A stretch of DNA of 32,000 nt from Desulfotalea psychrophila LSv54. Lineage in GTDB: Bacteria > Desulfobacterota > Desulfobulbia > Desulfobulbales > Desulfocapsaceae. Positions within the stretch are counted from its first letter, which is position 1, and every line of letters begins with the position of its first letter. This document shows, piece by piece, positions 11,957 through 30,788 of the stretch. The notes below the pieces were generated by a model. The model had not been told where the DNA came from. It searched no databases and was given only the letters and a program-made list of their open reading frames with translations. Both the position numbers and the translations under genes were made by a program. Location of the stretch: the NCBI RefSeq assembly GCF_000025945.1, contig NC_006138.1, positions 1,470,001 to 1,502,000 of the forward strand, written 5' to 3'.

Positions 11957-12028
11957 TTTAATACCTCTAACCTATCGTTTATAAAAAAACATAACGATAA
12001 ATAGACGTAAAGTACAAGCAGATGTCTC

Positions 12029-12421
12029 TTAGCGCTTTGAGAATTGAAACTTAGCGCGGGCACCTTTTTGTCCGTATTTCTTACGCTCTTTAACACGTTG
12101 GTCACGACGAAGCAGACCAGCTTGTTTAAGAGGAGTACGATTCTCAGGATCTGTCTCGAGAAGAGCACGAGAAATTCCGTGAGCAAGAGCATCAACCTGA
12201 GCAGACTTACCACCACCCTTAAGGGTAGCTATAACGTCATATTTCTCAAAAGTATCAGTTGTTTTGAAAGGCTTTTCAATGAGATGCTCTTTGAAAATTT
12301 TTCCAAAATACTCAGTTGTTGCCATTTTGTTTACGATTACTTTTCCGGTACCAGGAGTAAGCCATACACGAGCGATAGCATTCTTTCTTTTACCAGTAGC
12401 GTAAAAACGATCTTGAACCAT
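12029..12421 (-). CDS. rpsI: 30S ribosomal protein S9
   Basis: 130 aa. YATGKRKNAIARVWL and the C-terminal RRDQRVKERKKYGQKGARAKFQFSKR are S9 signatures. Confidence 0.97.
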   Translation of the reverse strand: MVQDRFYATGKRKNAIARVWLTPGTGKVIVNKMATTEYFGKIFKEHLIEKPFKTTDTFEKYDVIATLKGGGKSAQVDALAHGISRALLETDPENRTPLKQAGLLRRDQRVKERKKYGQKGARAKFQFSKR

Positions 12422-12437
12422 GTTTTTATCTCCAGAA

Positions 12438-12866
12438 TTAAATGTCTAAAACAGTAGGTTGCTGAGCTGCATGTGGATGAGCTGCTCCAACATACACCTT
12501 GAGCTTCTTAAGTTGTGCTCTGCCCATTTTGTTCTTAGGGAGCATGCCTCGAACTGCCTTAGTGATAAGGTCGGTTGGATGTTTTTCAAGAAGTTCTTTA
12601 GCACTGGTTTCTTTAATGCCACCAATATATCCAGTATGACGATAATATGTCTTGTCGTCCCACTTCTTACCGGTAAGCGCGATTTTCTCAGCATTTGTCA
12701 CTACAATGAAATCACCGTTATCAATAAATGATGAAAATGTAGGTTTATGCTTACCGCGAAGTCGAGAAGCGATCTCAGAGGCCAAGCGTCCCAGTACCTT
12801 GTTCTCTGCATCGACAACATACCACTCTTTCTCGATCTCGTTGACTGGAGCAAGATAGGTTTTCAT
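12438..12866 (-). CDS. rplM: 50S ribosomal protein L13
   Basis: [44 protein letters not shown] is canonical L13. The start is placed at ATG 12866 with SD GAGGG. The 38-codon N-terminal extension in the ORF track reads through a terminator and the tRNA-Gly gene, so it is spurious. Confidence 0.95.
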
Positions 12867-12894
12867 TGTGTCCCTCAAATATCTATCAGTTAAT

Positions 12895-12926
12895 AAAAAA
12901 AAAGGCTCGAACGTGTCGAACCTTTT
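12895..12926 (-). terminator. Rho-independent terminator between tRNA-Gly and rplM
   Basis: The minus strand reads AAAAGGTTCGA-CACGT-TCGAGCC followed by T9. The core stem is 7 bp (one G-U pair) and is extendable by A-U pairs. Confidence 0.6.
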
Positions 12927-12935
12927 ATCGTATAT

Positions 12936-13010
<75 letters not shown>

Positions 13011-13051
13011 TCGTATGCGTTTTGTTTTTGACTGTCATTAAGACAGCGACA

Positions 13052-13080
13052 TATATACAGACTTGGAGGTAGCTCGTCAA
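13052..13080 (-). promoter_or_regulatory. Candidate sigma70 promoter for tRNA-Gly (and possibly read-through into rplM-rpsI)
   Basis: The minus strand has TTGACG (13080-13075), a 17-nt spacer, then TATATA (13057-13052). This sits about 41 nt upstream of the mature tRNA 5' end. Confidence 0.45.
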
Positions 13081-13301
13081 CAAAAAAAGTGTGTTGATCG
13101 CTTTTTTTGTTTTGCTACACCCTCATCATTACGACAAAAAAGGTTAAATTTTGCGGCAACAAGACATGATACAGTTTTGTGGTTGAAAATGCAACGATAT
13201 TATTCTACCCTTTTTAAGACGTCTATTTTATATAGTTTATTCGTCTATGTTAAGATGTTTGTTGAAAAGCTTCCTTTAAATTTAATGGGTCAGGTGTTGC
13301 T

Positions 13302-13901
13302 ATGGTTGTAATTGAAAAAAACAGAAAATCGGCAATAAGCAGGAAAACGACAGAGACAGATATCCAACTGGAGTTGAATCTTGATGGGGCCGGTCAGCAT
13401 CTTATTGACACTGGCGTACCTTTTTTAAATCATATGCTGACCCTGTTTAGTGTGCATGGTTTTTTAGACCTCTCTCTTCGGGCAGAAGGTGATATTGATA
13501 TCGATGATCATCATACCACCGAGGACATTGGTATTGTTTTGGGACAGGCCATTGCTCAGGCTCTTGGTAATAAGGGTGGAATTAGTCGTTATGCTTCGGT
13601 CTACCTGCCCATGGATGAGGCCCTGGTCCGAATTGTAATAGATCTGTCCAATAGACCGTATTTGCATTATAATGCACCTGTTATAGAACAGAAGCTTGGC
13701 ACCTTTGATTCTTGTCTGGTTAAGGAGTTTTTCCGAGCAGTATCGCAACAGGCGGGGATGACCCTGCATATAGATATGATTCATGGTGAAAATGGCCATC
13801 ATATTGTTGAGGCGATATTTAAGGGATTTGGTCGGGCCCTCTCTTTGGCAATAGAGCCTCTTGGTACCGATGGTGCCCTCTCTTCAAAGGGATGTCTGTA
13901 G
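13302..13901 (+). CDS. hisB: Imidazoleglycerol-phosphate dehydratase
   Basis: 199 aa. RKTTETDIQLELNLDG, GVPFLNHML and DIDDHHTTEDIGIVLGQA are IGPD signatures. Confidence 0.95.
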   Translation: MVVIEKNRKSAISRKTTETDIQLELNLDGAGQHLIDTGVPFLNHMLTLFSVHGFLDLSLRAEGDIDIDDHHTTEDIGIVLGQAIAQALGNKGGISRYASVYLPMDEALVRIVIDLSNRPYLHYNAPVIEQKLGTFDSCLVKEFFRAVSQQAGMTLHIDMIHGENGHHIVEAIFKGFGRALSLAIEPLGTDGALSSKGCL

Positions 13902-13941
13902 GAAGGTAAAAATATTTATTATCCATTATAAGGAGACTCTT

Positions 13942-14562
13942 TTGAAAACACTACTGCACGCTATACTCATCTTCACGCTGATCCTGCTTGCCTCATGCTC
14001 GTCTAAAGCGCCGACCATGACCGAGGAGCAGAAACAGGAGGCCGCCCAATCGGTAGCAAGTATTGCTGTTTTGTCAACGACGGTCTATTTAAGTGATGTC
14101 AGTCCCGAGAAGAAAAAGGAGCTCACTGCAGGAGCGGTCTTTGTGGATACGCGAATACAAGAGGAACTCACTGGCAACGCAAAGGTTCAATTTGTGGGAG
14201 ATCGTCAGCAGTATAAAGAGTTTCCAGAGGTGGATGGGGGTCTTAAGGAAACTGCTTTGTCCATAGGTAAGAGCTTTGGCTGTGATGCTGTTCTTGTTCC
14301 AACCCTTGAGCGTTTTGTTGAGCGTGTTGGTAGTAATATGTCTGTGACATCGCCTGCTTCGGCCAGATTTTCCCTTGTTCTTTTAGACACCCAAACGGGG
14401 CAGACCATATGGACCAGACAGTTTAAAGAGACTCAGCAGTCTTTTATGAGTAATATACTGGCCTTTGGCAAGATGCAGGAGCGTGGCCTGAAGTGGATTA
14501 CCGTGGAACAGATGGTAGGTCAGGCAATTAAGGAGCAACTTGCAGATTGCCCCTACCTGTAA
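13942..14562 (+). CDS. Putative lipoprotein, function unknown
   Basis: The ORF-track start at 13861 lies inside hisB. TTG 13942 is preceded by AAGGAG (13930-13935) at a 6-nt spacing and gives MKTLLHAILIFTLILLASCSSK, a signal peptide with an L-A-S-C lipobox. Confidence 0.65.
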   Translation: MKTLLHAILIFTLILLASCSSKAPTMTEEQKQEAAQSVASIAVLSTTVYLSDVSPEKKKELTAGAVFVDTRIQEELTGNAKVQFVGDRQQYKEFPEVDGGLKETALSIGKSFGCDAVLVPTLERFVERVGSNMSVTSPASARFSLVLLDTQTGQTIWTRQFKETQQSFMSNILAFGKMQERGLKWITVEQMVGQAIKEQLADCPYL

Positions 14563-17792: not shown

Positions 17793-19726
17793 TGTTTGGT
17801 GAAGGAAGGCTAGATGCAAAGTTGTTGCCTGTGCGTGAGATCCAGAAGACTCTGTTTGAGATGTTTATCGCCAGTGTTGCCCATCATTCAGATAATATTG
17901 CCTATATATATAAGGTTAACGGTGAAGAGCTGCGGGTAACCTATTCAAAGCTCTTTGAGGATGTGCTTCTGTTGAGCAGGGCCTTTAAGAGGCGGGGCTT
18001 GGGCAGGGGCGATAAGGTGATGCTCCTCTCGGACAACCGTTATTCCTGGATCGTTACCGATCTTGCCCTTCTCTCCCTCGGGGCGGTAAATGTCCCCCGC
18101 GGCTCGGATACCCCCACTCAGGAACTTGAGTTCATTGTTGAACATTCTGAGAGTGTTCATCTGATTGTGGAGAGCAGTAAGTTGCTTGATCTGCATGCTG
18201 ATTATATCAAGAGATGCCGACAGATAAAAGACATCTTCATTATGGTGGCAGGAGAGGTGCATACCCTCTTTGGTCGTACCTATTCCTATCAGGATCTGCT
18301 TGCCAATCGTCAGTATAGCGAAAAAGATGTGAATAATTTTCTGGAAGAGGGTTATTCCTCTACCGAAGATGATTTTGTTACCATAATCTATACTTCAGGT
18401 ACTACAGGGGTGCCCAAGGGGGTCCAGCTCAGCAACAAGAACATTATGCATAATGTTGATTGTTTGCCGGGGATTATTCGTCTTACCGAGGAAGATCTGT
18501 GGCTCTCCATTCTTCCCAGCTGGCATATTTTTGAACGTACTGCCGAGTATGTTGCCCTTGCCGCCGGGACAACCCTCGTCTACTCCACGGTGCGCACTCT
18601 GGTCCAGGATCTGGAGAGATATAAACCGACCCTGTTGGCCACCGTGCCTCGGGTATGGGAATCTCTCTACTCCAAGGTGGACTCAGGGGTACGTAAAAAA
18701 GGAGCAATGGCCTATAGAATCTTTACTTCTCTTATCTGGTGTTCTTCCACTTATCGACGTAACAGAAGGGAATTTCTTGATCGGCTGCCAGTTTTTGCAA
18801 AGCCTAATTCCCTTGTTCGGTTTGGCCAAAAAGGTGTGGCTTTGGTGAAGATGTTGTTCCTTTATCTGCCCTATCTTTTTGCCGAGAAAAAGCTCAATGT
18901 GGTGCGCCAGCGTTTTGGTGGCAGGCTACGCTTGGCGATCAGTGGTGGAGGTAGTCTTGCCGATTACCTTGAAGAGTGGGTTGATGCCGTTGGTATTCGT
19001 ATTGTTAATGCCTATGGGATGACCGAGTGTTCGCCTGCTATTGCCGGACGTGGACTCGACTGTCGGGTCTATGGAACGGTTGGCGCAGGTGTTACCAATA
19101 CCCGGATTCGCTTGGTTGATGATGATGGCCTTGAAGTCTCTCAAGGAAAAGAGGGGTTGATTGAGGTTGTGGGCGATCAGGTTATGGGCGGTTATTATAA
19201 AAACGATGTGGGGAATATCGAGTCTTTTACCGATGATGGTTTTTTTAGAACCGGTGATCTCGGACGAAGGACGATCAGTGGTGATCTGGTCCTAACCGGT
19301 CGGGCCAAGGATATTATTGTTCTCTCCAGTGGGGAGAATATTGACCCCAGCCGGATTGAGAGTGCTATCTCTGTTTTTCCCTTTGTTCAGGATGCTATTT
19401 TGGTTGGGCAGGACAAGAAAGGACTCGGTGCCCTCCTTGTTGCCGACAGAGAAGAGTTGCTAAAGTATGCCGATAGCAGATTTTCTCATCTGCGTAAAGC
19501 CAGTCAAGAGCTTCTCAAGGATAATAAGGTGCTTGAACTGATTCGCAAGGAGATGAACGATAAGCTCCGGCCTAAGCAGGGGTTTAAGTCCTATGAAAAG
19601 TTGCATAAAATTACTTTCTTAGAAAAGGAATTTAAGCTCGGTGAAGAGCTGACCAATACCCTGAAAAAGAAACGTCATGTTATAGAAAAGAAATATCACA
19701 AGGTTATCAACGATTTGCTCCATTAA
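17792..19726 (+). CDS. Long-chain acyl-CoA synthetase (AMP-forming, ANL superfamily)
   Basis: IIYTSGTTGVPKGVQLSNKN AMP-binding motif, YGMTEC, GDLGRR...GRAKDII. ATG 17792 overlaps the ubiE TAA (TAATG); the ORF-track start at 17777 is a TTG five codons upstream. Confidence 0.88.
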   Translation: MFGEGRLDAKLLPVREIQKTLFEMFIASVAHHSDNIAYIYKVNGEELRVTYSKLFEDVLLLSRAFKRRGLGRGDKVMLLSDNRYSWIVTDLALLSLGAVNVPRGSDTPTQELEFIVEHSESVHLIVESSKLLDLHADYIKRCRQIKDIFIMVAGEVHTLFGRTYSYQDLLANRQYSEKDVNNFLEEGYSSTEDDFVTIIYTSGTTGVPKGVQLSNKNIMHNVDCLPGIIRLTEEDLWLSILPSWHIFERTAEYVALAAGTTLVYSTVRTLVQDLERYKPTLLATVPRVWESLYSKVDSGVRKKGAMAYRIFTSLIWCSSTYRRNRREFLDRLPVFAKPNSLVRFGQKGVALVKMLFLYLPYLFAEKKLNVVRQRFGGRLRLAISGGGSLADYLEEWVDAVGIRIVNAYGMTECSPAIAGRGLDCRVYGTVGAGVTNTRIRLVDDDGLEVSQGKEGLIEVVGDQVMGGYYKNDVGNIESFTDDGFFRTGDLGRRTISGDLVLTGRAKDIIVLSSGENIDPSRIESAISVFPFVQDAILVGQDKKGLGALLVADREELLKYADSRFSHLRKASQELLKDNKVLELIRKEMNDKLRPKQGFKSYEKLHKITFLEKEFKLGEELTNTLKKKRHVIEKKYHKVINDLLH

Positions 19727-19765
19727 TGGAGATGTTACTCATTCATTTTCTTTTACTCAAACCTA

Positions 19766-19805
19766 CGCACCCCCTCTTGTTCTCCCCCTCGCCAAGGTGG
19801 AGAGA
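19766..19805. repeat. REP-like GC-rich hairpin element, left copy
   Basis: CGCACCCCCTCTTGTTCTCCCCCTCGCCAAGGTGGAGAG. It shares the CGCACC end and the CTCGCCAAGG core with the reverse complement of the 19895-19931 copy. Confidence 0.6.
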
Positions 19806-19894
19806 CTTTCAGCAGAAATATGGCAACAGACGAAGCCTCTGCTCTTGCCCAATCTCCTCTTTTTTGCCCTTTCTCGCATCTTTTCTGCTTTTAG

Positions 19895-19931
19895 CCCCTC
19901 TCCTTGGCGAGGAGAGGTTGGGTGAGGTGCG
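19895..19931. repeat. REP-like GC-rich hairpin element, right copy (inverted)
   Basis: CCCCTCTCCTTGGCGAGGAGAGGTTGGGTGAGGTGCG contains an internal hairpin CCTCTCC-TTGGCGA-GGAGAGG. Its reverse complement aligns with the left copy. Confidence 0.6.
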
Positions 19932-20195
19932 TTCGTGCCGGAGGCAATTTCCTCCATTCCGTCAACTCTTATCAAGGGAGCAGGTCGCTCGGAACAATAA
20001 CTGTTTGTCGATTTTCAAAAGGTCTCACCTTTTCAATGCCAAAACCCATAAGAGATGGGGGCATTTAAGCGTTACAGTGTACTACATATCTGCAAAGCGA
20101 TAGCTGCCGATAAGAAAATAATGGTAGAGGTAAAGGCTAAAGGAAAAAAGAGGCCCTACCCGTTGTAGGGAAACCCTAAGCTTGCGCTCATGGGA

Positions 20196-20605
20196 GAATA
20201 AACACATGCAAAAAGCCTAAAAACCAGAACATTGGCGCAATATACATTTGTATAAAGCCTCAAACATTCAGTAGTCGACCAATATACAAATGTATAAAGC
20301 CCGAAACACCCAGGAGTGGAGCAATATACAGATGTATAAAGCCTGAAACATCCAGGAGTGGAGCAATATACAAATGTATAAAGCCTCAAACATCCAGGAG
20401 TGGACCAATATGTAAATGTATAAAGCCTCAAACACCGAGGAAACACAATATGCAAATGTATAAAGCCTGAAACATCCAGAGTGGACAATATACAAATGTA
20501 TAAAGGGTGAAACTTGAGTCTCGACCAATGTACCCGTGCATAGGGTGAAAACTGCCGAGGTTGACCAATGTACGAATGTCGAGAGGCTTGAAAGATGGGG
20601 AATGG
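20196..20605. repeat. Array of ten head-to-tail 40-42-bp direct repeats, each built around a TATACA-NN-TGTATA palindrome
   Basis: The CAATAT(A/G) register starts at 20196 (degenerate), 20238, 20280, 20322, 20364, 20406, 20446, 20486, 20526 and 20566. The spacing is 42 bp five times, then 40 bp four times. Consensus: CAATATACAAATGTATAAAGCCTSAAACATCCAGGAGTGGAG. The outer copies are degenerate. ORFs 20156..20488 and 20268..20528 are translation artefacts of this repeat. Confidence 0.95.
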
Positions 20606-20763
20606 CTTATCTAGAGGATCTTATCTTAGGTGAGATGGAGGACTCTCTTCTTATTTATGCAACAAGGCCGCATTGGTGTTAAAGAATTGATTATCTTTTC
20701 AAATTCACACATATTTATTTTCCTGATGGATAATGCTCATTAAAGCTAACTCCTCATTAAGAG

Positions 20764-20809
20764 GCAAAAAATTGTTGGCCAAAATCAGCGAGGCACGAGC
20801 ATGGCCAAC
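20764..20809 (-). terminator. Candidate (bidirectional) terminator downstream of the 141-aa gene
   Basis: GTTGGCCA (20774-20781) pairs with TGGCCAAC (20802-20809) across a 20-nt loop. The minus strand continues AATTTTTTG and the plus strand continues TGTTTTTGTCCTTTT. The long loop lowers confidence. Confidence 0.4.
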
Positions 20810-20834
20810 TGTTTTTGTCCTTTTGAATGACTTG

Positions 20835-21260
20835 TTATAAACCGTTTTCACGTGTGCTCATTAAAAAAGCCTTAAACCTAATAATGTTAGGAGTTTCATT
20901 GCGTTTCAGCATCGAATACTCTGTGAGAGCATCAGTTATAGCCATAAAAGAATCCAGTTTTAAGTTTAAATAGGCAAAACGATCTGCTTTATTATCCATG
21001 TGTTTAATAGAATTTTTCGGGCGCTTATCTTCTTTTTTGATAGCTGTTCTATTAATTTGTTCATCTATAAATTTAGCTGCTTGATCTAGTATCATAGTAG
21101 TAAAATCTTGCCCGCCGTTTATTCTTAGCCATTTACCATATATTTCTTGAGCAGCTCCAGCTAAATGCAGCGCCGAAAAATATTTTTGACCATCTAGATA
21201 TGATTCAATAGCACTCTCTAACATTTCATCTGCAATAGTTAATTTATCAAACTTTTCCAT
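20835..21260 (-). CDS. Hypothetical all-helical 141-aa protein with a possible HEPN-like (DUF4145-like) motif; partner of the Shedu-like gene
   Basis: AT-rich ORF 58 bp downstream of the 417-aa gene on the same strand. The N-terminal helix pair MLESAIESYLDGQKYFSALHLAGAAQEIYGKWL and R80-P-K-N83-S-I-K-H87 (codons 21023-21000) resemble the HEPN Rx4-6H signature. This is not a confident family assignment. Confidence 0.55.
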   Translation of the reverse strand: MEKFDKLTIADEMLESAIESYLDGQKYFSALHLAGAAQEIYGKWLRINGGQDFTTMILDQAAKFIDEQINRTAIKKEDKRPKNSIKHMDNKADRFAYLNLKLDSFMAITDALTEYSMLKRNETPNIIRFKAFLMSTRENGL

Positions 21261-21318
21261 GGGATTCCGATAGGTTTATAACGGCAGAAATCAGGCGCCG
21301 ACCAATGGATTTACCGCG

Positions 21319-22572
21319 TCAGCGCCCCATACCCCTTCCCGTTGCCTGAATTAATTTGTTGTGTGTTTTAGACCACTGACTTATTGTAAACTTAAGTCGC
21401 TCTAATAAATCATCATATGTAATGATGTCGATTACATTTTTGTATTTTCTTTTAATAACTTCAAAATCTTGCACCTGCTCATGTGTCATACCCTTTTTAC
21501 GACCCATAATTATAATGCCGCTTGGATTTGTTATTTTTATTTTGAAGTTCTCTGGCAATTCGTCTTTGTAGTGCTCTGTTAATTTTTCCTCTCCTTTTTT
21601 ACCCCATTTATTTAAATAGAAAATATACTTCTCAATTTGCATTACCGTACCAGAAAGTTCTCTTAGCGGTATGTAGTTGTCTCTATAAGTTCTTGTAGTA
21701 ACTATACACTTGTCGAAGGGCTTCTTTATTTCGATAATGTCTGTATTTCCGCTGGAATCTATTAGTAAATAGTCGATTTTTCGATCCGCTTTGTTATAGG
21801 TATCCCTGACAGGAGCTTCCTTGAATGCATGTATATATTTGGGATATAGCAGTAGTATAATTTGCAGCAATTCCTCCTGCCATTGAGCTTCAGTATAAGA
21901 AACTTCATCCTCAAGCATAGAATTAAGCTTTTCAGAAATGCTTGTAAATTTAATTAGTTCGAGATTTGAAAAATCATACTGAAGATTAGCTCCCTTTCTA
22001 CCATTTTTTTTATTTAAATATTGTTGATAACGTTCCTCATAGTCGTCATTAATTTCTATGTATGAAGATAAAACGCCACTGATCCTTGCTGAAACATATT
22101 TATTTAGTTCATTTGTATTGGGAAATGTTTTCAATAAACCATAATAAACCGGCATTGAGATCGCGTCTTCTTCGTCACCACCTATATAAATGGGACGATT
22201 TACCATGTTATCTATTTTGGGAAATATTGATATGTTACGTTCCGCGACAAAAAACCTACGTTCTAGTTTTATATCTTCATGCACATATAGATCGTGTTTT
22301 AAAGATAAAATATCCTTCGGGAAGCGATAGTATTCCCCATCCTTAACAGCAACTTCAAATTCAACTGGAGCCTCTTCGTCTTCTTTATTGAAAGCAGAAC
22401 TAAGATTCTTTTGGCTAAACTTGAAGACTTTACTAATTGTAACTCTGCCTGATTTATCCAATTCGTGATAGACCCAATTATGCGTGGGATAATCGCTTGA
22501 GTAGCAGAGTAAGATTTTGTTATCTAATTCCTTAAATTTAATCATATATTTGGGTTGCTCGCATTGAGACAT
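21319..22572 (-). CDS. Shedu-like (DUF4263) PD-(D/E)xK nuclease, putative anti-phage defence protein
   Basis: 417 aa, AT-rich. The C-terminal third reads EAQWQEELLQIILLLYP...RKIDYLLIDSSGNTDIIEIKKP...GTVMQIEKY...PSGIIIMGRKKGMTHEQ...VIDIITYDDLLERL. This gives a D...D...E-x-K nuclease core, a Q-x-x-x-Y helix and a TYDDL tail, as in DUF4263/SduA. The N-terminal ~250 aa has no recognisable domain. The start could be M10 (22545). Confidence 0.65.
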   Translation of the reverse strand: MSQCEQPKYMIKFKELDNKILLCYSSDYPTHNWVYHELDKSGRVTISKVFKFSQKNLSSAFNKEDEEAPVEFEVAVKDGEYYRFPKDILSLKHDLYVHEDIKLERRFFVAERNISIFPKIDNMVNRPIYIGGDEEDAISMPVYYGLLKTFPNTNELNKYVSARISGVLSSYIEINDDYEERYQQYLNKKNGRKGANLQYDFSNLELIKFTSISEKLNSMLEDEVSYTEAQWQEELLQIILLLYPKYIHAFKEAPVRDTYNKADRKIDYLLIDSSGNTDIIEIKKPFDKCIVTTRTYRDNYIPLRELSGTVMQIEKYIFYLNKWGKKGEEKLTEHYKDELPENFKIKITNPSGIIIMGRKKGMTHEQVQDFEVIKRKYKNVIDIITYDDLLERLKFTISQWSKTHNKLIQATGRGMGR

Positions 22573-22903
22573 AATGACCCGAGGTGAGCCACGAGATTGT
22601 TTTGTGATTTGGGCACCGTGTACAGGTCCTGGATTGAAAAATGGTCGCAGTCGCTTCCCTTATTGCTGGGGACTTAGCTCCGGGGCGACAAATTTTTCTT
22701 TAAAACTGCTGTTTATCTCCTCTGGTAACATAATGGAGGAGCAGATGGAAGACAAGCTTATTTCACTCCTGAGCCTAGCTTTAACTCTATGGAAAGTGGC
22801 AGAGTCTCTTATGGGGAGACCTCTACTCATTCGTAACGGAGAAAAGATGTTACTCTTCGAATATTAGATATTTATCCTGCTATAGCACTAAGGCAAACTC
22901 TTG

Positions 22904-23812
22904 CTACGATCGCCCCTTTTTATTAAGGGGGTAGCTGCTCTCTCGGTAAAAAATAAACATTCCAGAGGCAATGATGATGCCAGCGCCCAGCAGGGTTTGG
23001 GCACCAGGGAATTGCCCAAAAAGTAGCCAGCCAAGAATGGTGGCACTCACTATTTCGAGATATTGAAAGGGGGCAAGAACATTGGCATCTGCTTTGGTGA
23101 AGGCGATGGTTAAAAGTTGATGGGAGATAAGGGAGCTGGCGCCAACACCAAGAAAAAGGAGGGCAACCTCAGTCGTTGGCCAGGAGAGTTCAAAGAGCGG
23201 CAGTGAAAATGCATCTCCTAGTAAGGTTATGGGTAAAAGAAAGAGAGTTGCACCCATGCTTGCGTAGAACTGCATGGCGTTGACACTCTCTCCTCTTTTA
23301 CTCTGTTTTCTCGTTACAATAAGATATAGGGCAAAAAAGGTTGCGGTGAGAAAGGGGAGGATGGCGGTTGCACCAAAATTTGTGAAGCTGGGGCCGATGA
23401 TGAAGAGGGCGCCGGCAAAGCCAATCAAACAGGCTGTTATTCGTGCAATACCAATTTTTTCTTTAAGAAGTACGGCGGAAAAGAGGGTTAAGAGGAGGGG
23501 TTCTGCAAAGAAGATAGCAATGGCATCGGCCAGAGGCATTTGGGTAATTGCGGCGATAAAGCAAAGAGATGCCACTGCATTGAGAATACCTCGCAAAAAA
23601 TGGGTGGCCAGCAGAGGGAGCTTAGGGATTTTAAGTTCCCGGTAGGCAAAGGGAAAAAGCAGTGCACCCTGTAAAGAAAAACGGACTAAGGCAATTTCAC
23701 CGGGGGAAACATAGGCTGTCAGAACCTTACTTATGGCATCAATAACCGGAAGCAGCAAGGCTGCTGCTATCATAATAAGTAATCCTTTTTGCTGTGACTT
23801 TCTTTCCTCCAT
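22904..23812 (-). CDS. EamA/DMT-family transporter
   Basis: 302 aa with about 10 TM segments in two EamA-like halves. A strong SD (AAGGAGGAGG) precedes the ATG. Confidence 0.85.
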   Translation of the reverse strand: MEERKSQQKGLLIMIAAALLLPVIDAISKVLTAYVSPGEIALVRFSLQGALLFPFAYRELKIPKLPLLATHFLRGILNAVASLCFIAAITQMPLADAIAIFFAEPLLLTLFSAVLLKEKIGIARITACLIGFAGALFIIGPSFTNFGATAILPFLTATFFALYLIVTRKQSKRGESVNAMQFYASMGATLFLLPITLLGDAFSLPLFELSWPTTEVALLFLGVGASSLISHQLLTIAFTKADANVLAPFQYLEIVSATILGWLLFGQFPGAQTLLGAGIIIASGMFIFYRESSYPLNKKGRS

Positions 23813-27617: not shown

Positions 27618-30600
27618 ATGTTGCATCTTCATATATCTAACCACACCGAAAAGCTTCTCGAAATCTTAGCGGCCATTATTAAAAGAGAGGGCCGCGCCAA
27701 TCTCTTTGCCAGAGAAATTTTTTTAATTCAGAGCCCGGGGGTGGAGAGGACTGTCTGTCAGTATCTGGCCGATGAGTTTAAGAGCTGGTGTAATTTTGAT
27801 TTTCTCTTGCCTGCTGGTTTGTTGCGAAAAATAGCCTCAAGCCTCTATGTTGATCTTGAAACAGATCTCTTTGCCAGCCAGACGACCGTCTGGCGACTTG
27901 AGGCCCTGTTGCGGGATATTGATGAGGATATTTATCTGCCCTTGAAAAAATATGTAAGCGGCGAGGTGGCGGAGCTGAAAAGATATCAACTTGCCGGTCA
28001 GATAGCTCAGCTCTTTGATCAGTATCAGCTGATGCGTCCCAGCATGCTTGCCCGTTGGCGACTTGGCCAGAGGGTAACGGAGGAGGATTGCGAAATATGG
28101 CAGATGCATCTCTGGCAGAGACTGGTGGAGGAGTTCCCCGCTGCCCGGCATCAGGGAGAGATCTTAGAAAATATTATTGAAACATTGGAAAAAGAAGAGT
28201 GCCAACGTCGTCTGCCCAGGCGGATCTTTGTCTTTGGACTCCATACCATGGCCCCGCTCTTTTTAAAGTTCCTGCAGGCCCTGTCCTCCCGGACCGAGGT
28301 GCATCTCTTTCTCCTCTCCCCCTGCAGAGAATATTGGGGTGAGGTGGGGAGGGGAGGCGATCGTCTTCTCTCTCTGGAGGGCATAAGGGATTCGGGTGTC
28401 GATCTCTCTTCCTATGAGGAGGAAGAGCCTCAGCAGTTACTGGCCTCTCTTGGTCGGCAGGGCCGGGATTTTCAGCAGATGCTGGTGGCGTCCGCTGGTT
28501 ATAGTATAGACTCTGCCCTCTATCAGGGCTTAGGTGCTGGCTCTCCCCCCTCTCTTCTCCACGTCCTACAGGGGGATATTTTAGAGAGGGGCAGACTGGC
28601 GGTTACGGCAGCAAGAGACGATTCCCTTCGCATTGTCTCCTGCCATTCGCCTCTGCGGGAACTTGCTGTGCTCAAGGATCATATTCTTGACCTGCTCTAT
28701 AAGGATGCCAGCCTGCAGCTACGGGACATTGTGGTGATGGCCCCTGATATTCAGGAGTATGCCCCGCTCATTCCCGCCCTCTTCGCTGACATTCAGTACT
28801 CCATAGCCGATCGTGCCACGGGACAGCGCAATACGGTGATGGCTGTCTTTCTTGATTACCTCAACCTCTTCTCGGGAAGGTTCGGTTGGAGTGAGGTTCT
28901 TGATCTGCTTCGTTCGGAGCATATTTATTCCCAGTTTAGCCTTGGTGAGGGGGATTTTGATCTCCTGCAGAAGTGGGTGACAGAATCCGGTATTCGCTGG
29001 GGACTTTCAGCGGAGCAGAGGCAGGAGCTCGGCCTACCTCCCCTGGAGCTGAATACCTGGTTGGCTGGCTTGCAGAGGCTGCTCCTGGGCTTTGCCATGT
29101 CCGCCGATACCATGGTGGAGGGGGTTTTGGCCTACAGCGATATCGAGGGCAATAGTGCTCAGGCACTTGGCGGTCTTTGCGAATTTCTTCAGGTGTTACA
29201 GGGGGGACAAGAGCTCTATACCACTCCACGTCTTCTCCATGAGTGGGCAGAGTTGCTCCAGGGGGATGCGGAGCGTCTCTTTGGCGGTGAAGAAAATTCT
29301 GCCCATCAGGAACTACAGCAGATTCTGGCAGGGCTTGGCCGGGGCAGGGAGTATCAGGGCGTCCTTCTCTACAGTCAGCCCATTGCCTTTCAGGTGGTTA
29401 TGGCCTGGCTCCAGCAGGCCTCTGCCCAGGTTGGTTCCAGTGCAGGCTTTCTCCGGGGGCAGTTGACCTTCTGTTCTATGTTGCCCATGCGCTCTATTCC
29501 CTTTCGGGTGATCTGCCTTTTGGGGCTTAACGAGGGTAAGTTTCCCAAACAGGATAAGCAGGCGACCTTTGATCTCCTCGCCAGCAAACCCGAGCTGGGT
29601 GATCGCTCGCCAAGAATTGACGATCGTTATCAGTTTCTTGAGGCCCTGATCTCCGTGCGTGACTCTCTCTATCTGAGTTATGTGGGGAGATCGATAAAAA
29701 ATAATGGCGAGATTCCTCCCTCGGTTGTTCTCTGTGAACTGCTTGATCTGCTGGAGTGTAAATTTGCCATTAAGCCTGAGGATATTGTGGTTGAACAGCC
29801 CCTCCATCCCTTTAGTTCAAAATATTTTGAAGGGAGAGCTGACCTCTTTAGCTATAACGAGAACTGTCTTACCCTGGCCCAAAAGATCTATGGTGGTGGT
29901 GGCGGGGAGGAGCGTCCATGGTGGTCGGGGAACCTGGGACGACCTCAGGAGAACATCTACCTGGCCGATATGGTCTCTTTTTACAAGAACCCCCAACGTT
30001 GGTTTGTGAGCAGAAGTCTTGAGATTCGTCTGGGTGCCAGTTCGGATCTACCCGACGATACAGAGACCTTCTCTGCCTCGGGCCTTGATCGTTATCTGTT
30101 GGAACAGGGTTTGGTAGAGGATCTGCTGGCAGGTAGAGAGGTGGCAGATATCTATCATGGTCTGGCCATAGAGGGGCGCTGGCCCCAGGGGACTCCGGGG
30201 AGCCTCCTCTTTAAAAAACTCCTGACAGAGTTGGACGAATTTACCAACAGCATTCGTCAGATAGATCCCGGCCCGATTATCCAGACCCTTCCCATTGATC
30301 AGCGTATTGGCCCCTATCGTCTTTTGGGGAAGGTTGCCCTGCGCCAGAATGGGATTTTTCTCCATCGTTATGCCAATCGTAAGGGCAAAGATCTACTTGA
30401 GGCATGGTTATATCATCTGGTGGCGGGAAGGGAGCGACCGGATATTATCACCTGGCTGGTCTGTAAGGATGGGGTGCTGAAATTTTCAGAACAGCCGTCC
30501 GAGGAGATGCTCCTTCTCTATCTGGAGCACTTTGCCTTTGGTGTTAATACCCTCTCCTCCTTTCAAGTTGAGGCGGCCTATGCCTATAGTTTGCACTGTC

Positions 30601-30788
30601 AAAAGAAGAGTAAGAAGACACCGATGCAGGTAGCCGAGGAGACCTTGAAGGGGAGCGTGACAAAGGGGTATGAACCCGAGCTGGCCCTTGCCATCAGCGG
30701 TGGAGTGGAGGAGTTTTTGGCGGGAGAATTTGAACGATACTGTATAGAGCTGATGTTGCCTATTTGGGAGTACGCCGATGAGTTATAA
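27618..30788 (+). CDS. recC: Exodeoxyribonuclease V gamma subunit
   Basis: 1056 aa. N-terminal MLHLHISNHTEKLLEILA...IFLIQSPGVERTV is typical of RecC. The size and the immediately overlapping recB gene also support the call. Confidence 0.88.
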   Translation: MLHLHISNHTEKLLEILAAIIKREGRANLFAREIFLIQSPGVERTVCQYLADEFKSWCNFDFLLPAGLLRKIASSLYVDLETDLFASQTTVWRLEALLRDIDEDIYLPLKKYVSGEVAELKRYQLAGQIAQLFDQYQLMRPSMLARWRLGQRVTEEDCEIWQMHLWQRLVEEFPAARHQGEILENIIETLEKEECQRRLPRRIFVFGLHTMAPLFLKFLQALSSRTEVHLFLLSPCREYWGEVGRGGDRLLSLEGIRDSGVDLSSYEEEEPQQLLASLGRQGRDFQQMLVASAGYSIDSALYQGLGAGSPPSLLHVLQGDILERGRLAVTAARDDSLRIVSCHSPLRELAVLKDHILDLLYKDASLQLRDIVVMAPDIQEYAPLIPALFADIQYSIADRATGQRNTVMAVFLDYLNLFSGRFGWSEVLDLLRSEHIYSQFSLGEGDFDLLQKWVTESGIRWGLSAEQRQELGLPPLELNTWLAGLQRLLLGFAMSADTMVEGVLAYSDIEGNSAQALGGLCEFLQVLQGGQELYTTPRLLHEWAELLQGDAERLFGGEENSAHQELQQILAGLGRGREYQGVLLYSQPIAFQVVMAWLQQASAQVGSSAGFLRGQLTFCSMLPMRSIPFRVICLLGLNEGKFPKQDKQATFDLLASKPELGDRSPRIDDRYQFLEALISVRDSLYLSYVGRSIKNNGEIPPSVVLCELLDLLECKFAIKPEDIVVEQPLHPFSSKYFEGRADLFSYNENCLTLAQKIYGGGGGEERPWWSGNLGRPQENIYLADMVSFYKNPQRWFVSRSLEIRLGASSDLPDDTETFSASGLDRYLLEQGLVEDLLAGREVADIYHGLAIEGRWPQGTPGSLLFKKLLTELDEFTNSIRQIDPGPIIQTLPIDQRIGPYRLLGKVALRQNGIFLHRYANRKGKDLLEAWLYHLVAGRERPDIITWLVCKDGVLKFSEQPSEEMLLLYLEHFAFGVNTLSSFQVEAAYAYSLHCQKKSKKTPMQVAEETLKGSVTKGYEPELALAISGGVEEFLAGEFERYCIELMLPIWEYADEL

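Follow-up and report, generated by a model that had tools for sequence, protein, structure and literature searches.

A Shedu nuclease gene of the Escherichia coli SduA kind in Desulfotalea psychrophila, probably a single-gene system carried on an integron cassette

What lies at the locus?

The stretch of DNA discussed here, which we call the window throughout, comprises 32,000 nucleotides of the Desulfotalea psychrophila LSv54 genome (contig NC_006138.1, positions 1,470,001 to 1,502,000), and our interest in it centres on sduA, a minus-strand gene for a Shedu nuclease, and on a small gene, which we call orf141, 58 bp further downstream on that strand. The open reading frame (ORF) that contains sduA, at 21319..22572 on the minus strand, encodes 417 amino acids. 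A preliminary description of this frame had seen in it a Shedu-like nuclease of the DUF4263 family with an unrecognisable N-terminal domain of about 250 residues, lying in an AT-rich islet and perhaps forming a two-gene variant of Shedu with its small neighbour. The motifs that it named are all there as described, namely E228-A-Q-W-Q232, I-D267-YLLID...DIIE281-I-K283-KP, M-Q312-IEKY and IIIMGR...ITYDDLLERL, and the islet is real, since the fraction of G and C (GC) is 0.339 in sduA and 0.359 across the islet (20154-22575), as against 0.476 in the rest of the window.

The identical protein is already in NCBI, where the RefSeq form of 408 amino acids is 100% identical to ours and carries the name "Shedu immune nuclease family protein". 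That form starts at Met10 of the longer frame, as do the alignment with SduA of Escherichia coli (EcSduA), the PADLOC model and the consensus of 36 homologues, and because all of these begin there we take Met10 (ATG at 22545) as the most likely true start, giving a protein of 408 residues. The upstream ATG (22572-22570) falls within ATTATGT, a degenerate cassette-boundary motif to which we return below. Features of the locus are collected in Table 1, and residues of the window protein are numbered here by the 417-residue ORF.

Table 1. Features at and around sduA, with their positions in the window and the evidence for each
Feature	Position	Strand	Evidence
sduA coding sequence, 408 amino acids plus stop; type I, EcSduA-like Shedu nuclease	21319..22545	-	RefSeq identity; PDLC00388; 8PS4; Foldseek 8PS5/8PS4
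Nine extra codons of the 417-residue ORF, probably 5' untranslated region, non-coding	22546..22572	-	Start at Met10 elsewhere; ATG inside ATTATGT
N-terminal domain and helical linker, homologue of the EcSduA clamp	22006..22545	-	8PS6, E=3e-33; Foldseek target TM 0.72
W33 codon	22474-22476	-	Equivalent of EcSduA W25
R112 codon	22237-22239	-	Equivalent of EcSduA R106
SduA_C/DUF4263 PD-(D/E)xK nuclease domain	21403..21897	-	Pfam PF14082, E=3.8e-42
Active-site codon E228	21889-21891	-
Active-site codon Q232	21877-21879	-
Active-site codon D267	21772-21774	-
Active-site codon E281	21730-21732	-
Active-site codon K283	21724-21726	-
Active-site codon Q312	21637-21639	-
Degenerate R'-type core at the 5' end of the sduA cassette: ATTATGT, where the consensus is GTTATGT	22569..22575	-	GTTATGT of relatives
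Candidate, probably decayed, sduA attC; R'' ACACAAC in T-H-N-K codons, R' GTTATAA	21276..21364	-	attC hairpins of relatives
orf141 integron gene cassette, 532 bp	20750..21281	-	From upstream R' TTATAA through the G of downstream R'
orf141 coding sequence (141 amino acids), conserved all-helical protein	20835..21260	-	62 homologous clusters; superfamily of 852 representatives; AlphaFold2 model
97-nt attC downstream of orf141, with R'' TTATAAC (overlapping the stop codon) and R' GTTAGCT	20744..20840	-	Homology and hairpin
Tandem array, 8-10 units of 42 to 40 bp, each with palindrome TATACA-NN-TGTATA	20196..20582		12 matches at <=2 mismatches against 0.15 expected
Terminator-like hairpin, possible end of an sduA-orf141 transcript	20154..20170	-	Only one on the minus strand in 19700-23000 (consensus scan only)

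Is it a Shedu nuclease, and of which kind?

It is, and most of the evidence leads to one relative in particular. The Pfam family SduA_C (PF14082) matches residues 226-390 over positions 2-159 of its 159 (E=3.8e-42, 144.6 bits against a cutoff of 27), the PADLOC SduA model PDLC00388 matches residues 10-404 over positions 1-400 of 402 (E=2e-162), PHROG 18241 spans the full length of the protein, and there are 2588 homologues at E<=1e-10. In the Protein Data Bank the match is to SduA of E. coli KTE10, whose structures are 8PS4, 8PS5 and 8PS6 (Loeff et al., Cell 2025, preprint 10.1101/2023.08.10.552762); residues 10-398 align with chain A of 8PS4 at 43.7% identity (E=3e-94). An AlphaFold2 (AF2) model built from 36 homologues gives the same answer when compared with known structures by Foldseek, its best matches being 8PS5 and 8PS4 (E about 1e-38 to 1e-35), then 8PS6 (E=2e-14, target template modelling (TM) score 0.72) and then the nuclease core of the Bacillus cereus Shedu protein. 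Together with the conserved catalytic residues discussed below, these matches bear out the assignment to the Shedu/DUF4263 nucleases of the PD-(D/E)xK type.

What does not survive is the idea of an unrecognisable N-terminal region. Residues 10-189 align with 8PS6, the separately crystallised N-terminal domain of EcSduA, at E=3e-33, the same domain is found by fold comparison, and the PADLOC model covers it from residue 10 onwards. Judged by its sequence, the N-terminal part is thus a homologue of the EcSduA clamp for the ends of double-stranded DNA (dsDNA), which is the best-characterised N-terminal domain of any Shedu. The likeness to EcSduA is that of two proteins of 408 residues with a common three-part architecture, in which an N-terminal clamp domain is followed by a helical linker and a C-terminal DUF4263 nuclease; full-length identity is 44%, rising from 33% in the N-terminal domain through 46% in the linker to 51% in the nuclease domain. 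The two differ in their settings, since the host of the window copy is a psychrophilic sulfate reducer and its gene appears to sit in a decayed integron cassette. In our view it is very probable that this is a canonical, single-gene type I Shedu nuclease of the E. coli SduA subfamily, brought in on such a cassette.

How might the enzyme work?

Much can be borrowed here from EcSduA, which is sufficient on its own to protect E. coli and is a tetramer (Loeff et al., 10.1101/2023.08.10.552762). According to the same study, its N-terminal domains form a clamp that is open only to a linear dsDNA end, where Trp25 is stacked, and its DUF4263 domain is a Mg2+-dependent PD-(D/E)xK nuclease that nicks the 5' strand about 14 nt from that end. 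Alanine mutants at E226, D269, E283, K285 and residue 314 lose both immunity and dsDNA cleavage, W25A and R106A abolish immunity in vivo, and Q230A merely reduces it (10.1101/2023.08.10.552762). In the 8PS4 alignment the six active-site residues E226, Q230, D269, E283, K285 and Q314 map to E228, Q232, D267, E281, K283 and Q312 of the window protein, and W25 and R106, the end-stacking tryptophan and an arginine of DNA patch 1, map to W33 and R112, so that all eight are conserved. The mapped active-site residues and W33 are invariant in 36 homologues of 58-85% identity, and R112 is kept in at least 90% of them. The catalytic triad that the preliminary description had proposed, D267/E281/K283, is therefore the right one, being equivalent to the validated D269/E283/K285 of EcSduA.

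By analogy we infer for D. psychrophila SduA, granted that the gene is transcribed, the same oligomeric state, end sensing, nicking and anti-phage activity. The protein would assemble as a tetramer, and paired N-terminal domains would clamp only a free, linear dsDNA end, with W33 stacking on that end. The DNA would then be placed over the Mg2+-dependent PD-(D/E)xK site formed by E228, Q232, D267, E281, K283 and Q312, and the 5' strand might be nicked at a set position, about 14 nt in from the end. Because the clamp would admit only free linear ends, linear phage DNA should be attacked and the circular chromosome spared. Two modes of activation have been proposed for Shedu nucleases, namely the end-clamp nicking of the E. 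coli protein (10.1101/2023.08.10.552762) and, for B. cereus SduA, a change from tetramer to octamer with double-strand cleavage (Gu et al., 10.1101/2023.08.10.552793).

How did sduA come to be there?

The clues to the origin of the gene come from the flanks of its relatives. Among 31 distinct loci with SduA relatives of at least 55% identity, 21 carry an exact GTTATGT 21-30 nt before the ATG, where shuffled sequences would be expected to give 0.18, and the mean pairwise identity of these loci is 0.30 in the 25 nt upstream of its G, where their sequences are unrelated, and 0.56 in the 24 nt downstream. At the other end of the gene, the complementary R'' core, ACATAAC, lies within the conserved T-H-N-K codons near the C-terminus of the relatives, and canonical attC hairpins ending in GTTATGC, GTTATAT or GTTATGG follow sduA in at least nine loci. 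Because this recombination site encodes it, the tail of SduA after N-K is variable. The core embedded in T-H-N-K codons was noted in the window at 21355-21366 (where Table 1 gives its degenerate form) and in loci L016, L020, L022, L024, L027, L037, L040, L042 and L045.

Candidates for both of the corresponding sites are present in the window in degenerate form, and the window copy of sduA looks like a fossil cassette. We think that sduA reached D. psychrophila as an integron gene cassette and that its recombination sites probably decayed afterwards; with orf141 it would make up, amid housekeeping genes, a small cassette cluster of about 2.4 kb that has 36% GC and no integrase. Darracq et al. 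(10.1101/2024.07.02.601686) place Shedu second in frequency among the known defence systems of integron cassettes, and the insertion of cassettes at genomic attG sites is also on record.

What is orf141?

The small neighbour encodes 141 residues and, in an AF2 model with a predicted local distance difference test score (pLDDT) of 88, is all-helical. Its homologues fall into 62 clusters of 43-95% identity, found in Rheinheimera, Marinomonas, Photobacterium, Vibrio and metagenomes, and an exhaustive profile search extends the superfamily to 852 representatives at the 50% identity level, mostly of 140-160 residues, to which no family library gives a name. These are for the most part stand-alone helical proteins, with a few tandem duplications or fusions of 300-389 residues. 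The motif N83-x-x-K86-H87 is nearly invariant across the superfamily, and the preceding K82 is invariant within the close family. Species-representative genomes yielded only three orf141 loci, and the context of the others comes from look-ups of the exact proteins.

That orf141 is an independent integron cassette, with intact boundaries and an attC of its own, is clear from several directions. The 93 bp directly 3' of its stop codon are 77-85% identical to several unannotated sites, repeated and non-coding, in marine gammaproteobacterial replicons (Pseudoalteromonas, Vibrio, Aliivibrio and Catenovulum), one of which sits in a dfrA1-containing array, and the 97-nt attC of the window folds as a long imperfect hairpin (z about -3.4 on both strands). 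The gene ends in GGxTTATAAC in most homologues with a readable 3' flank (L001, L002, L004, L011/L014 and L015), which places its stop codon inside an R''-type core, and in four of these loci an R' core of the form GTTA... follows 70-130 nt later, L002 being the one in which it is absent. On the 5' side, homology between unrelated loci starts exactly at G/TTATAAACCT (the stroke marks the boundary), which lies some 21 nt upstream of the start codon; this junction is common to the window, L001, L009/L010 and L011/L014, whose sequences ahead of it are unrelated, and in one locus an attC of the same family precedes the point where homology starts. In Vibrio vulnificus (L007) the homologue stands just after infC-rpmI-rplT among many small genes of one orientation, and the integrase found 1.2 kb upstream of it reaches 481 bits with the integron-integrase model TIGR02249, whose cutoff is 265. 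A home-made attC scanner, which looked across the whole window for AAC...GTT with terminal pairing and scored energy per nucleotide, picked hairpins in coding regions and missed the orf141 attC, and was discarded.

In Rheinheimera and several marine metagenome contigs (L004 8001-9177, L005, L006 and L011 8001-9214) a gene of 202-214 codons, conserved in size and with no Pfam domain in its product, stands about 140 nt after orf141; this is probably the cassette that comes next in that array.

Do the two genes form one system, and which other readings deserve weight?

A two-component Shedu is known to exist: in KELShedu (PMC12577705), as here, a DUF4263 nuclease adjoins a small gene on the same strand. 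With sduA and orf141 on one strand, similarly low in GC, and no terminator-like site seen by a consensus scan in the 58 bp between them, it is natural to ask whether the small protein regulates or targets the nuclease in the way that KELA serves KELB. The loci of relatives speak strongly against this, because an orf141 relative occurs in 0 of 80 metagenomic loci of SduA relatives (41-74% identity), 53 of which run on for 600 bp or more past a complete C-terminus, and tblastn found no SduA in any of the 15 loci that carry orf141. Across those 53 loci the genes downstream of SduA vary in size and strand, with no conserved neighbour, and even the closest relatives, 84% and 78% identical, are flanked by different genes, in the one case an AAA_15/AAA_21 ATPase and a 729-residue protein and in the other a TIR protein. 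A cassette boundary, G/TTATAA, runs between the two genes of the window, with a candidate attC between them and the separate attC of orf141 after them. KELA, moreover, is needed for defence and lies upstream of KELB at a distance of 3 bp (PMC12577705), whereas orf141 lies downstream of sduA and beyond the cassette boundary, never accompanies SduA in the loci examined and has no detectable E. coli homologue, there being no E. coli protein in its 62 clusters; and EcSduA functions without a partner. We consider a two-gene Shedu extremely improbable here, the idea having been largely refuted by the co-occurrence test, and the non-canonical variant envisaged in the preliminary description has to be given up. 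Its suggestion that the two genes are co-transcribed fares better: this is plausible as a consequence of cassette adjacency, though not as the mark of a dedicated operon. Since cassettes usually come without promoters, orf141 may be transcribed by read-through from sduA.

If orf141 is no partner, it could still be a defence or toxin cassette in its own right, possibly a divergent relative of the HEPN proteins, stacked by chance beside Shedu. Integron cassettes are enriched in small defence systems (10.1101/2024.07.02.601686), the neighbours of orf141 in other loci include toxin-antitoxin pairs, and K82 with N83-x-x-K86-H87 resembles the R-N-x3-H motif of HEPN, and several of the best fold matches are HEPN proteins. 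None of those matches is significant, however (Foldseek E 1.4-3, TM-scores 0.34-0.41), and neither the sequence, nor a profile, nor the AF2 model of orf141 finds a significant counterpart in Pfam, PADLOC, NCBIfam, PHROGs, PDB sequences, PDB folds or viral folds. In a Pfam scan of 42 distant relatives a single one touches HEPN (E=0.0016) and the window protein does not, and the K-N-x-x-K-H motif has a lysine where the R-x4-6-H motif of HEPN has its arginine. On balance such a cassette seems unlikely, and we would put at longer odds still the fuller proposal that orf141 may encode a HEPN-like nuclease that has diverged, works by itself as a miniature module of defence or toxicity and is expressed by read-through from Shedu, so that the two cassettes would make a stacked pair in defence. 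A HEPN assignment was dropped, the searches and the scan of relatives having given weak hints only. As for sduA itself, the gene could be a remnant, no longer active, of a cassette gained by horizontal transfer: its two recombination cores are both degenerate, and it stands alone among housekeeping genes with no promoter recognisable in a consensus scan. Yet the frame is intact and of full length, its product keeps every catalytic or end-sensing residue that does not vary among homologues, and the decay of an attC leaves the protein unaffected, so we regard an inactive sduA as very improbable.

The view that we prefer, of an EcSduA-like nuclease on a decayed cassette, has its own soft spots. 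End recognition is carried over from an N-terminal domain that is just 33% identical, and secondary DNA-contact residues differ, EcSduA K116, R154 and Y256 being N, K and T in D. psychrophila. In the AF2 monomer the linker has a pLDDT below 50 and the global TM-score is 0.45, which leaves the arrangement of the domains unconfirmed by the model. The cassette origin of the window copy rests on its relatives, because its own 5' core (ATTATGT) and attC are degenerate, the 89-nt candidate attC folding weakly with z of -1.1 and -0.2.

The surroundings of the closest SduA relatives are of some interest in themselves. On two metagenomic contigs (L097 3026-6308 and L098 145-5395) the 84%-identical SduA sits between the 575-residue AAA_15/AAA_21 ATPase upstream and the 729-residue protein, which has no Pfam domain, downstream, with gaps of 74 and 29 nt; further upstream in L097 are an IS91-type transposase and a tyrosine recombinase, and this locus may be a multi-gene defence cluster. 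In two further loci (L100 100-2461 and L101 2794-5155) the 78%-identical SduA follows a 339-residue TIR-domain protein on the same strand after 130 nt.

How does the locus compare with other known systems?

With SduA of B. cereus (8TI8, 8TI9; Gu et al., 10.1101/2023.08.10.552793) the window protein has the DUF4263 core in common (E=2.5e-5 by sequence, about 1e-5 by Foldseek), and in both an N-terminal domain would restrain the nuclease. The N-terminal domains themselves are unrelated, and only residues 256-397 align. Where the vehicle is concerned, the nearest parallels are the defence systems in integron cassettes and in the attC sites that lack an integrase, known as CALIN (clusters of attC sites lacking integron-integrases) and SALIN (single attC sites lacking integron-integrases), described by Darracq et al. 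(10.1101/2024.07.02.601686), with which the window would have in common a single-gene Shedu in an attC-bounded cassette and an integrase-less cluster of attC sites. The window copy differs in that it stands outside any integron, among the housekeeping genes of a member of the Desulfobacterota, and in that its own recombination sites appear decayed. Shedu is also mentioned in the Z/fun hotspot of P2 prophages (10.1101/2023.08.10.552762).

What else does the islet contain?

The tandem array of Table 1 lies between the orf141 cassette and the minus-strand terminator-like hairpin. Rfam does not match it, nothing like it occurs in the fetched loci, and it might be a set of operators or iterons or else a satellite; a CRISPR reading was ruled out, as the units are contiguous and there are no unique spacers. 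The rest of the islet (19727-20750 and 22575-22903) matches none of the fetched loci, and the small ORFs left over in it find nothing in Pfam. Only the 93-bp attC matched plasmid records, and the idea that the islet is a fragment of a plasmid or phage was rejected.

The flanking genes are housekeeping genes, for EamA, MOSC, Usp, a YbaK-type editing domain, RecC, acyl-CoA synthetase, UbiE and a class II aminoacyl-tRNA synthetase, and there is no integrase within the window; the cassettes lie where the acyl-CoA synthetase and EamA genes adjoin. The gene for RecC (exonuclease V gamma) at 27618-30788 is 5 kb from sduA; dsDNA ends are a substrate of RecBCD too, but there is no sign that the two are linked in function. 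Rfam, run on the whole window, found a single, distant tRNA and no known RNA element in the islet; this tRNA-Gly(GCC), at 12936-13010 on the minus strand, is the sole RNA gene detected and adjoins a second AT-rich stretch (about 12000-14000, GC 0.40-0.42).

What does the locus tell us?

Neither the system nor its kind of vehicle is new, for the protein was already annotated and the structures and mechanism of its subfamily are published, as is the presence of Shedu in integron cassettes. What the analysis offers is mainly correction: the N-terminal domain is, by homology, the known DNA-end clamp, the start is probably Met10, and orf141 is an independent cassette. Because the neighbouring gene is a cassette of its own, the locus ought not to be listed as a two-gene Shedu of a new type. 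For the SduA proteins of this clade it follows from the cassettes of the relatives that the recombination site itself supplies the coding sequence of the variable C-terminal tail, which is of low complexity.

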